Position numbers and translations under genes: made by a program
From: Leucoraja ocellata
Taxonomy: Eukaryota
Direction: 5' to 3'
DNA length: 64,000 nt
NCBI GenBank assembly: GCA_036785375.1
Contig: JAWMAR010001454.1
Coordinates: 62,001 to 126,000 of the forward strand
Shown here: positions 1-49,917 of the stretch, one piece after another
Layout: each line of letters opens with the position of its first letter
Position numbering within the stretch: the stretch's first letter is position 1
The notes under the pieces: generated by a model
What the model was told of the DNA's origin: nothing
Database searches by the model: none
What the model saw: only the letters and a program-made list of their open reading frames with translations

Positions 1-52
1 TGGCGGATAAGGCATGTGTCACTTTCTATTGAGACTTTAAGCCTTTGGTAGT

Positions 53-260
53 TGTAAAAGGACTTACTGCACACACACAAGTCTTTTACTATAACTATTT
101 ATTAGGTAACTGTTAATCACTATGCTGTAGCTGTCCGTGGTCATCACTGGAGCTAGAGAGCGAGCTAGAGGTGGGGACACTACAATTATACTGGAGACAA
201 TGGGGAGTGGTTAGTAATACGGGAGGTCACTATGGTTAAAGGAACATGCACTGATCTACA
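53..260 (-). repeat. 3' LTR of Gypsy element
   Basis: Identical to 4284-4491 except one C/T (GGAACATGC vs GGAATATGC); PPT adjacent. Confidence 0.95.
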
Positions 261-355
261 TCCTTCCTCTGGGAAACAAAAGCATGGCAGGTACTATACA
301 GAGTGACCACGGCTCATACGCTACGAACACCAACCGCACCGGCAACAGTACAACA

Positions 356-3300
356 CTATGCGAGCTCCCCGTAGCGGACAGGCGGCCTGACCAGCCGGCC
401 AGAGCGGGTGCGTAAGCCGCCCTCCTCCTCATCGTCGGGAACAGAAGGGACGGCAGCCGGGGGATCGGCAGGAGAGGCGGGCGGAGGAGAATGCGGGGCT
501 GCGGGTGGAGAAATAGGCTTGGCAGGCGAGGTAGGTTTTGCGGGCGATGCCGGCTTGACAGGCGAGGCAGGGGAACGGGCGGACAGTTGTGAGGGGAGGG
601 TGCGTGGCATGCGAGGCGTAGACGGGGCCTGAGGGGCCACGGGAGGTCTGGAAGAGATGGGGGGGTGAGAAGGATCCGCGGGAGGCGGAGCGGGCTCATT
701 CACAAGCAGCATGTGCTGGCGGGAGCGACGGTAGATAGCCCCCTCGTAGTCGACGAAATAGGACTGCGGAGAACCGGCGTCGCCGACTACGACTGCCAGG
801 CGGTAGTGGCCAGTGGGGGATTGCATCCGGACAACCTGCCCCGGGAGCAGACGTGGAAGGGGCCGGGCAGATTTGTCAAAAGAGCGCTTCTGGGTGTCCT
901 GTTTTTTGGCAATGCGCTCAGTGGCAGTGGCAGGATTTTGTACAGAGGGCTTGAGGGACTGCTGGGAGACCGGCAGGGGAGGTCTGGTGGTGCGAGACAT
1001 GAGGCGTTGGGCAGGGGAGCCGAGCGCAGGGTCGCGGGAAATGTTGCGGAGGTTAAGCAGGGCAAGGTGGAAATCGGCACGGAACAGGCGGCAGTGTTCC
1101 AGCAGCTCCTTGGCACTACGAACGGCCCGTTCAGCAAGTCCGTTGCTCTGAGGAAACTCGGGGCTGCTGGTGATGTGGTGAAAGTTCCAACGGGCAGCAA
1201 AGGTCTTGAACTCGTCGCTGGAGAACTGGCTGCCGTTGTCGGACCGGAGGGTCACCGGGGAGCCGAAGGTGGAGAAGTGGCGGCGAAGTTTCCCGATGAC
1301 AGCGGCAGAGGTGATGGAGGTCAGCTGGTCGACCTCGAACCAGCTGGAATAGGAGTCCACCAGGACCAGGAAGTGCTTTCCGCGCCACTCAAAGAGGTCG
1401 GTGGCAACGGCCATCCATGGGAGCTCTGGGGCCGGCGGCTGCAGGAGAGGCTGGCGCTGCTGATGGGGGTGCAGGGTGTTGCAGGCAGCGCAGGCGGAGA
1501 CCCTGTCACGGATGTCCTGAGCCATGCCAGGCCAGTAGAATTGGCTCTGGGCATGGGAGAGGGTAGCTTCCACCCCAGGGTGGCCGCTGTGAGCAGTCTG
1601 GAAATAGTGATCCCGGAGTGCGGCAGGCACCACGACTTTGTGACCCTTCACCACCACGCCGGCGTGAAGCACCAGTTCGTCGCGAACAAGGAAATATGGT
1701 GCCGCGCCAGCAGGCAGTTCGGAGCGACGGTCAGGCCAACCACGGCGGATAACGTCCGCAAGTTGTTGCAGGGCAGGATCATCAGCAGTGTGCTGGACCA
1801 GGGACTGCATTTGCTGTGAAGGAACAATGTTGACGTTTAGTACCAGAAGGTCGGAGGATTCGTACGGGTGGCGGACAACGGAAGGCAGCGGAGCACGAGA
1901 AAGAGTGTCAGCTACAAACATGTCTTTGCCCTTACGGTAGACGATCTGGAACGTGAAACGCTGGAGCTGCAGCATCATGCGCTGCAACCGGGAAGAAGCA
2001 ACATGGATAGGTTTATTAAGGATTGTCACCAACGGCTGGTGGTCAGTCTCGATGGTGAAAGAGTTGCCGAGGATGTAGTCTTTAAACTTGGAGCAAGCGA
2101 AGACCACGGCAAGCAGCTCTTTTTCAATCTGGGCATATCGCTGCTTGGCAGGGGTCATGGTGCGTGAAGCGTAGGAGACGGGCAGCTGAAGGTTGTCATA
2201 AAGCTGCAGGCAAGCGGCACCGAGACCAAACTTCGAGGCATCGCAAGTGAGGATAATAGGTCGGTGCAGGTCGAAAAATTTCAAAGTCGGGGTAGCGGCA
2301 AGCTTTAGCTTCAGAGTCACGAAAGCTGACTGGTGGTGCGGGAGCCAGACCCACGCGGAGTCCTTTTTGATTAGTTCCCGAAGGGGGGCACTCAGTTCAC
2401 TGAGGTCGGGTATGAATTTACCCAGGTAATTGACCATGCCCAGGAAACGCTGCAGGCCAGGGACGTCAGTAGGAGCGGGCATGTCAGTGACTGCTGACGT
2501 TTTCTGGGGGTCGGGTTTGAGACCCCCAGCCGTGAAGACATGGCCAACGTAAGTGACTTCTGGAACCCGGAATCGGCATTTCTTCGGGTTCAGCTTGAGG
2601 TTCGCCCTGTCCAGGACTTTGCGGAGGTTCAGGTCGTGCTCAGCGCCGTCCCTCCCGTACACCAGAATGTCATCCACGATGATGGCGCACGGTAAGCCGG
2701 CAAACAGTTGCTCCATGGTGCGCTGGAAAACCTCGCTGGCAGAGTTGATTCCAAACGGCATGCGGAGGAAACGGAACCGGCCGAAGGGAGTGCTGAAAGT
2801 GGTGAGGAATGAGGAGCGTTCGTCCAGAGGGATCTGCCAGAAGGAGCTCTTGGCGTCTAGGACTGAAAAGACAGTGGCAGGGCCAACCTGTGCAGCAACG
2901 TCCTCTACCGTCCGCATGGGGTAGTGCAGGCGCTTGATGGCAAGGTTGAGGTCCTTGGGGTTAATGCAGATCCGAATCTCGCTTTTGTCCTTTTTGGCTG
3001 CGACGGCCATGGTGGAGACCCACCTGGTGGGAGCGCTCACCTCCTTGAGGATGCCCATGGTCACCATATCGCGCAGAGTAGACTCCACGCGGCCCTTCAT
3101 GGCAAAGGAGACGCGGTGTGCCGGCCGAATCACCGGGTCGACGCTCGGGTCGACAACAATCTTGTAGTCACAGGGCAGCTTGCCCAGAACGTCATCAAAA
3201 CGGTCGGGGTATTCAATAAGTGGGTCCATGGGAGCCTGCACTAGGTGAATGCTGTGGTGGAATGAGACTAGCCCCAAGTCCTGACACGCACGGGCGCCCA

Positions 3301-47536: not shown

Positions 47537-47854
47537 CTCGAGGTATACTGATGTTTTGGCTTTTCAAATCGTTTTCATGGTGGACTTGGCAGGTATAGAC
47601 GGAACCTTTGAACCACTCTGCAGCTGGGAATGTCAACTGGCAGGTCGCCGAGAAGTTATCGTTACCGTTCACCTGGAAGGCGGGAGAGGTGACGATGCCA
47701 GAATCCAATGACTCGCCATTCTTCAGCCAGGTCACAGTAAATTTTGCTGGAGTGAAATCGTTGACCAAACACACGGCGATCGCTATTCTGCTGAGCTTGA
47801 TTTCATCAAGGGCACTTATGGTAATGGAGACGTTAGGATGATGTACCACGCGGT
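47537..47854 (-). CDS. IGHM: IgM heavy chain Cmu2 exon
   Basis: TTTTCTTTCAG|AC acceptor, CGAG|GTAAG donor, 318 bp, phase 1-1; AVCLVNDFTP..VTWLKNG..SGIVTSP..FSAT..EWF..VYTCQVHH resembles shark Cmu2. Confidence 0.93.
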
Positions 47855-48280
47855 CTGAAAGAAAATAAACTTCATTGGAATTGCTCATAAACTATCGTTG
47901 ATTAATAATGACACCCAATATTTTGACCAAAAAAAACAAACATAAAAAACAAAATTTCACTTTTTCTGATTAAAAGTAGCCAGGACTTGGACTTCCCGAG
48001 ATGCTGCTAAATTATTTGTTTATCGCGGTACATCGAGTGCTCATAAATGTGGACATTATAGCTCGGTAAGTTGTTGTCACAGGGATGTGCTGGGGCCGAC
48101 TTCTGCTTTTGTTCTCTGTGACTGTGTCTGTGCTTTTAATACTCTTGATAATGTTCTCAACATGATGCACTCAGCCGCTTCGATTGTTCGCGAGGTAAAA
48201 TGTAACCTATCTATGGATAGACCAGTTCCTCACGAATTATATGGATGTGCTGGTGATGATAATACATTAATCAGTCCTTT

Positions 48281-49341
48281 TCAATTCAATTCAATTCAAT
48301 TCAATTCAACTTTAATGTCATCGCACAAATACAAGTATCAGTACAACGAAATGCAGTTTTGCGTCAGTCCGTAGTAGTTGTACATAAAGAGAAAAAACAA
48401 GAAAAAAATAGAAAGAGAGAAGATACAGAATAATCAGGAAATACAGAATGATTAAACAAAGGGGGACGGAGGGACCAGAGAAATCTATCGTCGGGACTCC
48501 GAGTTCAGCAGTGTGATTGTGTTGTTATAGAAGCTTTTCCTCATCCTGCTGGTACGTGACCTGAGGCTCCTGTACCGCCTCCCTGATGGGAGGAGGGCAA
48601 ACAGTCCATGGTTGGGGTGTGAGGGGTCTTTGATGATCTTCCCAGCCCGTCTCAGACACCGTTTTCGGTGGAGGGCATCCATGGCAGGGAGCGGGGCACC
48701 GATGATGTACTGCGCGGTTTTCACCACCCGTTGTAGTGCCTTCCTGTCCGCAGCAGTGCAGCTGCTGTACCATACCGTGAAGCAGGTGGTCAGGATACTC
48801 TCTATGGTACAGCGGTAAAAGTTGGTCAGGATCTGGGGGGACAGGTGGGCTTTCTTGAGCCTCCTAAGGAAGTAAAGGCGCTGCTGTGCCTTTTTGATCA
48901 GCTTGGAGGTGTTGAGGGACCAGGACAAGTCCTCCGAGATATGCACTCCGAGGAATTTATAGCTGGAGACGCGCTCCACCTCAGTCCCGTTGATATGGAT
49001 GGCGGTATGACTGCCTCCTCTGGTCTGCCTGAAGTCGACAATAATCTCCTTCGTCTTTTTGGAGTTGAGGATGAGGTTATTGTCGGCACACCAGGTGGTC
49101 AGGTGCTGGATCTCATCCCTGTAGGCTGACTCATCGTTGTCGCTGATCAGTCCTACTACCGTGGTATCGTCAGCAAACTTAATAATGGCGTTGGATCCGT
49201 ACTGTGGGATGCAGTCGTGGGTGAAGAGGGAGTAGAGGAGAGGGCTGAGCACACAGCCCTGTGGCACGCCGGTGTTCAGTGTTATAGTGGAGGAGGTGAG
49301 GTTATTGATCCTAACAGACTGTGGTCTGTTAGTGAGGAAGC
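48281..49341 (-). mobile_element. 5'-truncated young Rex1/Babar LINE with open RT C-terminal half
   Basis: PQGCVLSPLLY, KFADD, KFLG (48485-49267); (GAATT)n tail at 48281-48310. Confidence 0.92.
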
Positions 49342-49917
49342 TCTCTACAAGTACATTTTTGTTTTTTTATGATTTTGTAGATGGTGAATTGTCTCGATAT
49401 TTGAAGCACCGCCTTTCGTTCCGTCACAAGAACGAACGCCAGTGCTTCAGTATTACGAATATCGCTCTCGCCCCTCGGTGCCAGGAAACAAAACTCACCG
49501 TTTTATCGAAACAACAACAGCAGATGTTGTTTGATTAAAAAATAAGCAAAGGGCTGGAATAATTTGGCGGATAAGGCATGTGTCACTTTCTATTGAGACT
49601 TTAAGCCTTTGGTAGTTAAATTGAGAATGGAATTTTATCAGTGTTCCAGATGTTACATGGCATCTGTGGATGCAGCCACACTTTCACATCACTGTATCGA
49701 CATGAATTGTCTGTCTTTGACTTGTTGGATCGTGGAGCTCAGATGAGCGTTCGATAGTCAGTATGACATGAAGAATAAAACCGAACAGGGCACATTAAGT
49801 CAAGTACTTATCTCCAATTGTCAAATCCTGTGAATTATATGGATTGCATCATGGCCTGTTTCGGGAACATCCAGGAGCGGAAAAGGCTGCAAAATGTTGG
49901 AACCACTGGCCAATCCA

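Follow-up and report, generated by a model that had tools for sequence, protein, structure and literature searches.

The DNA analysed here is a stretch of 64,000 nucleotides (the window), corresponding to positions 62,001-126,000 of the 268,005-bp contig JAWMAR010001454.1 (C1454) in assembly GCA_036785375.1 (3.44 Gb) of the skate Leucoraja ocellata. It is part of an immunoglobulin M (IgM) heavy-chain cluster in which a single V(D)J-Cmu1 head is followed by four constant-region modules and then by ribosomal DNA (rDNA). A module that stands directly behind V-D-D-J-Cmu1 is called headed, and a set of constant exons without its own V(D)J-Cmu1 is called headless. The layout probably goes back to a single microhomology-mediated duplication that was spread by unequal crossing-over among rDNA-linked loci, the extra modules being silent in B cells and occasionally recruited behind a head in the germ line. 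This explanation builds on the observed anatomy of the locus, its adjacency to rDNA, a junction common to the headless modules, their range of copy number, the spread of deletions among them and their mosaic ancestry. The whole contig was analysed; its IgM genes lie on the minus strand. The census and all comparisons refer to this single assembly.

Anatomy of the IgM cluster on contig C1454

Read from 5' to 3', the contig carries leader, V, D1, D2, J and Cmu1, then module D, the headless modules C, B and A, a last flank and rDNA. Modules D, C and B consist of Cmu2-4 and the transmembrane (TM) exons, and module A of Cmu3-4 and TM. The sole head of the contig (V-D1-D2-J-Cmu1) is located at contig 189.6-195.9 kb, which is 64-70 kb right of the window. 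Its V, D1, D2 and J elements are arranged in one orientation within about 2 kb (contig 194.2-195.7 kb) and are equipped with recombination signal sequences (RSS; 23/12/22/12 in an RSS scan); V matches the Pfam V-set family. Exons of head and modules encode four C1-set domains (Pfam), a secretory tail with a penultimate cysteine, and TM1/TM2. The best named PDB matches of Cmu4 are designated 'heavy constant mu' (IgM constant regions); among named proteins, one of Amblyraja radiata is most similar to Cmu2 (87% identity). The four modules are 97.8-98.8% identical over aligned columns. No second leader, V promoter, V, D/J or Cmu1 was found in the duplicated units on the contig. rDNA at the left contig end includes full 18S and 28S genes and continues with a period of 17,291 bp out to the end. 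In the 45S rDNA unit (contig 1-28300; 17,291 bp), 366-bp spacer repeats carry a motif related to the core of the putative promoter described below.

Elasmobranch IgM clusters have one constant-exon set each (VH-D1-D2-JH-Cmu1-4-TM), are distributed over many chromosomes, and undergo inter-cluster switching without switch regions, according to the available parts of PMC5192425 and PMC4279169. The head and first module of C1454 have the composition of such a cluster, but the locus as a whole holds more than one constant set.

A sequence-only reading had described the window as a direct duplication of about 49.6 kb and predicted another headless module immediately to its left, as part of a tandem array behind at most one V(D)J. 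Base 1 does correspond to base 49565, over about 53 bp; the duplication is, however, not one continuous block. After interruption of copy A by a 4.4-kb gypsy element, homology picks up again at 4492/49612, and the offset between the copies changes from 49.6 to 45.1, 46.4 and 39.3 kb in turn because of private insertions. Spacing from junction to junction is 45.1 and 39.2 kb. The distance given for base 49565 was accurate: it lies 1711 bp upstream of the Cmu2 acceptor (47854), or about 0.66 kb if the insertion at 48285-49337 is subtracted. Likewise, the window contains no V, D, J or Cmu1: contig 189.6-195.7 kb was the sole region in which contig-wide scans detected RSS, V, J or Cmu1. A tandem array behind a single V(D)J is indeed what the contig contains, and the window's own module (B) is also headless. 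The predicted module to the left (A) exists with Cmu3, Cmu4 and TM1/TM2, located about 2.0, 4.1 and 8.1-8.4 kb left of base 1, respectively, with open frames and AG/GT splice sites. Its Cmu2, expected 0.65-1.7 kb left of base 1, is absent; tblastn and blastn searches of the whole contig revealed that a deletion located some 110 bp to the left of base 1 has removed it.

The IgM-rDNA junction

Each headless module opens with the same junction: at a point about 410 bp behind Cmu1, the Cmu1-Cmu2 intron meets a 277-bp fragment from the 3' end of 28S, the two being joined via a 3-bp microhomology. Upstream of this fragment lie a copy, of about 550 bp, of the rDNA located 0.8-1.3 kb ahead of the 18S gene and, still farther upstream, spacer-like repeats. 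The identical 28S fragment of the last unit runs on as rDNA; one end of the duplicated unit is therefore in the intron and the other at a break within the first rDNA unit, which carries an internal deletion. A search with the junction pattern yielded 21 exact matches, distributed over 10 contigs, and the reversed pattern used as a control yielded none. A retroelement targeting 28S genes was ruled out as the source, because the DNA flanking the 28S piece copies the rDNA unit's own upstream region.

Judged by its position, the stretch 0.8-1.3 kb upstream of 18S is a putative RNA polymerase I (Pol I) promoter with the start of the 5' external transcribed spacer (5'ETS). It may resemble vertebrate rRNA start sites; a literature search on the start-site motif gave no relevant title among the matches listed. 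The spacer repeats carry motifs related to this stretch. Among the copies examined, the core motif is nearly unchanged, and six internal promoter copies have a deletion just upstream of the core.

Both window copies display this arrangement on the minus strand. In module B, the 28S fragment occupies 49919-50195, joined to the intron by the common 3-bp microhomology; a 96.6% copy of the putative promoter and 5'ETS start (50192-50740) is oriented as the Cmu exons, and spacer-like repeats at 50741-51321 form the border between IgM 3' flank and rDNA-derived DNA. The intron of this module (47855-49918, with a LINE (long interspersed nuclear element) insertion at 48285-49337) is homologous to the headed module up to a point about 410 bp from Cmu1. 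Module A starts with a 28S fragment at 4799-5075 (Rfam LSU match 4932-5075; 98.9% identity to the contig's rDNA). It is preceded by a putative promoter copy at 5072-5582, likewise assigned by position and with about 40 bp deleted internally, and by repeats of a 41-bp type (5583-6060) homologous to rDNA intergenic-spacer repeats.

Genome-wide census of headed and headless modules

A Cmu4 pattern search gave 61 matches, and a Cmu1 search identified 22 copies at ≥98% identity among the best 40 of 41 candidates. Between zero and four headless modules follow each of these 22 heads, nine of which trail one to four; two further headless modules are on a contig without a head. The IgM-rDNA boundary pattern matched 33 times, 17 of the matches being terminal. 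All 16 terminal boundaries outside C1454 enter rDNA-homologous DNA in blastn comparisons with the contig's rDNA, 13 continuously over the stretch read and three as short remnants. Seven of eight contig ends examined are rDNA (the exception is C353). Sixteen heads share a contig with an rDNA boundary, and six (on C353, C1824, C3537 and C4588, and two on C2360) are on contigs without a boundary match.

Five large contigs have the flank upstream of V in common over at least 28 kb, and parts of this similarity extend to about 68 kb. Probes taken about 150 kb upstream on C404, C755, C865 and C5 (one each) gave near-identical matches only on their own contig (best 13-40 candidates), which implies at least four distinct loci; a fifth probe was discarded as a common repeat. 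All 21 V exons read from the 22 heads are open and encode 20 different proteins, with one protein common to C865 and one of the two heads of C2360 (C2360b). As some contigs may be allelic, the number of loci is at most 22. Another 17 or so clusters of the same V family have one V, one Cmu1 and one Cmu4 each among the matches listed, and five such ordinary clusters that were inspected have one Cmu1-4-TM set each. Thus 22 of about 39 IgM clusters in this V family, about half, form a young subfamily that lies mostly beside rDNA arrays. The shared block adjoins a 45S rDNA array and recurs nearly identically at several non-allelic loci, as in rDNA-flanking pseudo-homologous regions. The contigs suggest that the loci may be on different chromosomes.

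Several further observations concern the subfamily. Nine of 21 heads are partly germline-joined in various ways (V-D1, V-D2, D1-J, D2-J) while the Cmu1 exons are 98-99% alike, which argues for repeated recent RAG action in the germ line. V domains usually have a tryptophan at the start of framework 2; all 21 V exons of the subfamily encode leucine there. Their complementarity-determining regions CDR1 and CDR2 are diverse and the C regions homogenised. C1544 holds two complete heads only about 27 kb apart (177-217 kb) and C2360 two clusters with inverted flank between them; these are separate rearrangements in the same subfamily. A hidden head in the 150-kb gap between modules on C1461 was considered and rejected, as the stretches sampled consist of an expanded 8-bp satellite. 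This satellite covers a few kb in the window and fills the sampled stretches across about 120 kb of C1461 (about 70-195 kb) and a 10-kb sample of C353. The 992-residue Amblyraja radiata model LOC116974745 was rejected as a headless array, since two Cmu1-bearing clusters are joined in this gene model; its two Cmu1-4 sets resemble those of the skate subfamily, and it looks like a fusion of neighbouring clusters.

Sequence exchange between headed and headless modules

A tree was calculated from the Cmu3-Cmu4 region of 39 of the 43 modules, leaving out the four without Cmu3 or Cmu4. The headed/headless label changes nine times on this tree, with at least three changes forced by strongly supported branches, and trees with a single change made up 0% of 200 bootstraps. 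Between headed and headless modules, the fixation index (Fst) reaches 0.14-0.21 up to 1.8 kb from the junction and drops to 0.01-0.05 farther away (maxima in shuffles, 0.025-0.082). These data indicate that headed and headless modules swap sequence and that their ancestry is a mosaic. Tree and Fst pattern are compatible with a junction that arose once and with later crossovers on its 3' side; such crossovers would also explain why headless modules have inherited exon constraint.

Condition of the modules and selection

Damage was found in 11 of 21 headless modules and in one of 22 headed modules (Fisher p=0.0006, the events not being independent: the deletions go back to a small number of events that have spread, and indels of single bases may reflect assembly errors). 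Cmu2 is missing, in frame, from six headless modules, with one common deletion junction on five contigs, and from none of the 22 headed ones. Three headless modules lack Cmu3 through a deletion between homologous LINE pieces, one of the three additionally carrying a frameshift in Cmu2 and a stop in TM1. Other headless damage comprises one Cmu3 frameshift and one internal Cmu3-4 duplication. In the sole damaged headed module (C1777), Cmu4 and TM were lost by a deletion that likewise occurred between homologous LINE pieces.

Private coding variants gave a ratio of nonsynonymous to synonymous changes per site (pN/pS) of 0.96 in headless modules (23 nonsynonymous, 7 synonymous) and of 0.47 in headed modules (24 and 15; p=0.03 versus neutral). 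The numbers of headed and headless exons compared were 22 and 14 for Cmu2, 22 and 17 for Cmu3, 21 and 21 for Cmu4, and 17 and 12 for TM1, with frameshifted, partial and then-uncovered exons excluded. Singletons per kb in exons versus introns amounted to 0.87 versus 1.02 in headless modules (p=0.69) and 1.10 versus 1.71 in headed modules (p=0.048). Thus, headless modules look relaxed in their private variation. Two alleles are specific to them: a Lys-to-His double change in Cmu2 (7 of 14, compared with 0 of 22 headed) and a Gly-to-Glu change in Cmu3 (4 of 17, compared with 0 of 22).

Expression signals

A GT..AG joint of Cmu1 to Cmu2 was detected in two of two probable RNA runs, whose RNA status is a guess, and in neither of two DNA-like runs; the joint may come from any of the clusters. 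With the headed module as reference, it was the only exon-to-exon joint among the matches listed in the RNA comparison. The differences listed (40 of 345) include none at headless-only positions, and the loose ends listed do not include the IgM-rDNA junction. Behind the secretory stop, 41 of 43 modules have two AATAAA signals. On C1454, an antisense CR1-type LINE 545 nt after TM2 has moved the membrane poly(A) site of all four modules 4.5-5.5 kb away from its ancestral position; the ancestral signal lies at about +600 in five ordinary clusters, and another AATAAA is present at about +930 in the C1454 modules. The Cmu1-Cmu2 intron contains no switch-like region rich in hotspots of activation-induced cytidine deaminase (AID), with 16.4 WGCW motifs per kb versus 16.2 contig-wide.

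Origin and possible use of the extra modules

A sequence of steps probably accounts for the arrays. An IgM cluster would have come to lie beside an internally deleted first rDNA unit consisting of spacer repeats, promoter region and 28S 3' end. A break in the 28S piece would then have been joined to the Cmu1-Cmu2 intron, so that Cmu2-TM, flank and rDNA stub were duplicated. Exchange between rDNA-bearing loci would have spread the cluster and altered copy number, and a crossover 3' of the junction would place a formerly headless module behind a head, with modules consequently moving in and out of selection. Extra modules would be translated rarely or never, because they lack V promoter, leader, VDJ and Cmu1 and lie behind the poly(A) signals of the first module. 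They are thus likely to be mostly silent by-products of unequal crossing-over.

A number of findings weigh against this explanation. The evidence comes from one assembly, bootstrap support had not converged, and 12 of 36 inner branches of the tree are unresolved. Ten of the 21 headless modules have no damage and keep canonical splice sites, and both spreading deletions take out whole exons in frame. The difference in nonsynonymous and synonymous counts between headed and headless modules is not significant (Fisher p=0.20). Exon diversity in headless modules is half that of introns (0.0091 versus 0.0182), which also makes it difficult to regard them simply as pseudogenes, and Cmu4 hardly varies; exchange with headed modules explains both features, but use of the headless modules would do so as well. 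The displaced membrane poly(A) site could favour read-through. Finally, the six headless modules that lack Cmu2 in frame recall nurse shark IgM1gj, which has three C domains owing to the loss of CH2 (available part of PMC5192425). IgM1gj, however, is an expressed gene that is complete, having Cmu1 and a germline-joined VDJ of its own, whereas Cmu2 loss in the skate occurs only in headless copies.

Use of the extra modules could take more than one form. They might be acceptors for a somatic, switch-like deletion in which AID-induced breaks in the repeated intron join VDJ-Cmu1 to a downstream Cmu2-4, Cmu3-4 or Cmu2-Cmu4 module, the duplicated rDNA promoter providing a germline-like transcript. 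The modules are oriented as the head and share up to 1.3 kb of intron, a promoter-like copy with a nearly unchanged core precedes each of them, and the exon deletions are in frame. This is nevertheless unlikely, considering the neutral-looking private variants, the frameshifts and a stop, the lack of a hotspot-rich region, the putative nature of the promoter, and a module identity of about 98%, with which most switches would change little; the available parts of PMC2118177 and PMC6846656 provide no support for AID action under Pol I. Similarly doubtful is its widest form, a proto-translocon at nucleolar organizers, in which one rearranging VDJ-Cmu1 would reach spare Fc modules (including in-frame Cmu2-less and Cmu3-less ones), each opened by a captured Pol I promoter, through switch-like somatic deletion, while rDNA exchange would multiply and homogenise IgM clusters across chromosomes. 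Read-through, i.e. splicing of one VDJ-Cmu1 transcript to alternative downstream Fc modules, was the function proposed by the sequence-only reading. All scored headless acceptors and donors are canonical and in one phase, and the LINE has displaced the membrane poly(A) site; yet a transcript would have to run through both secretory AATAAA signals, additional signals downstream of TM2 and, in each unit, 37-47 kb of repeats, with an intact Cmu2 only 1.8 kb from Cmu1 and the Cmu1-Cmu2 joint the sole one among the matches listed. Together with damage to half of the headless modules and the neutral-looking variants, this leaves alternative Fc use by splicing without support, and we consider it quite improbable.

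A non-coding role, with promoter-like copies and spacer repeats recruiting Pol I factors or tethering the cluster to the nucleolus and the exons as passengers, would agree with the conserved core motif and with the finding that linkage to a nucleolus organizer region (NOR) puts mouse IgH near nucleoli (PMC4164489, available part). The six internal promoter copies with deletions just upstream of the core argue against it, and so does the copy number of 0-4, by which many clusters do without the units; such a role is very unlikely. Hardly credible is an assembly artefact, i.e. wrongly concatenated haplotypes or rDNA-adjacent repeats. Most contigs are short and break in rDNA, and near-identical pairs across contigs (the V protein of C2360b and C865; tight pairs in the tree) suggest that some contigs may be allelic. 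However, four modules on one contig that are pairwise 1.2-2.2% apart and have private insertions exceed two haplotypes, which also disposes of the false two-haplotype duplication considered in the sequence-only reading. Moreover, a single non-homologous junction is found 21 times, also on a contig of 2.0 Mb, and the 21 heads read encode 20 different V proteins.

Relation to known systems

The skate arrays resemble the elasmobranch IgM minicluster in having one V, two D and one J with RSS, four C1-set exons, secretory tail and TM1/TM2, and in including partly germline-joined members. They differ in that 9 of 22 heads have one to four Cmu1-less modules behind them and that an rDNA boundary is present on the same contig for 16 of the 22. 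The headless arrays thus break the textbook layout of one constant region per cluster in sharks and skates. Duplicated constant regions without their own V are also found in catfish IGH2/IGH3 (V-less secreted IgD) and in shark V-less IgW (PMC5192425, available part); in the latter a leader is spliced to the first C exon, whereas the skate units lack V promoter, leader and Cmu1. Class-switch CH arrays of mammals and amphibians similarly have one VDJ upstream of several C modules in the same orientation behind promoter-like elements. Skate modules, by contrast, have no CH1 (21 of 21 headless), are about 98% identical, lack a switch-like hotspot region and carry a promoter-like element derived from rDNA.

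On human acrocentric short arms, rDNA-side segmental duplications are homogenised among loci by exchange, with mosaic ancestry and a flank that fades with distance (PMC10172130, available part). In the skate, sharing of the flank extends at least 28-68 kb upstream from V, and the mosaic tree, Fst decay and shared deletions fit heterologous recombination among rDNA-flanking loci. Unlike the human block, the skate block includes an antibody locus that is intact, spliced and rearranging and has diversified V genes. Multiple NORs are described for batoids in the available part of PMC6905454. The available part of PMC12227049 maps the IgH complex near T-cell receptor genes and does not use the term 'rDNA', and the passages available from PMC13320880 contain no link between IgH and rDNA. 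The literature searched, whose coverage mostly excludes primary skate and nurse shark studies, contained nothing that links elasmobranch IgH to rDNA or describes Cmu1-less arrays.

The arrays are a real variant of the IgM cluster that occurs at several loci and has apparently not been described. What is surprising is the rDNA linkage and an array seeded by rDNA; a function of the extra modules appears unlikely. To our knowledge, the route by which IgH clusters of cartilaginous fish were dispersed over chromosomes is unexplained, and exchange among nucleolar organizers offers a concrete route for multiplying and homogenising IgM clusters. Headless arrays also illustrate how a one-V, many-C layout could originate from a cluster in one step. 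The shark form of switching is poorly understood; the natural allele tags in headless modules allow use by splicing or by shark-type switching to be followed directly.

Further features of the window

The remaining features with an assigned strand are on the minus strand, like those described above. The intron remnant of module A comprises 1-52 and, reaching the rDNA junction, 4492-4798, both assigned by homology. It is interrupted at 53-4491 by a Ty3/gypsy long terminal repeat (LTR) retrotransposon with Pfam matches to reverse transcriptase, RNase H and integrase; its 208-bp LTRs (53-260 and 4284-4491) are 99.5% alike, and an open reading frame (ORF) for 1229 amino acids occupies 356-4045. 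The exons of module B are Cmu2 (47537-47854, with the Lys-to-His allele), Cmu3 (45196-45495), Cmu4 with the secretory tail (43010-43402, two AATAAA signals behind the stop), TM1 (40275-40402) and the TM2 coding part (40132-40140); Cmu2, Cmu3 and TM1 are open with AG/GT splice sites. A private Ser-to-Cys change gives this Cmu2 an extra cysteine, found in one of 36 Cmu2 exons.

The 3' flank of module B (6061-40131), the spacer of the tandem unit, consists mostly of transposons and was free of V, D, J, RSS and Cmu1 in the scans. It includes the antisense CR1-type LINE in the membrane 3' untranslated region (about 35081-39620), the 8-bp satellite (25489-28303) and a full-length L1 (16361-22392) with open ORF1 and ORF2. 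At the other end of the window, 51322-64000 is the 3' flank of module C, whose Cmu2 is located at contig 150.1 kb. The gypsy element, which is young, and the L1 are each present in just one of the window's two copies.

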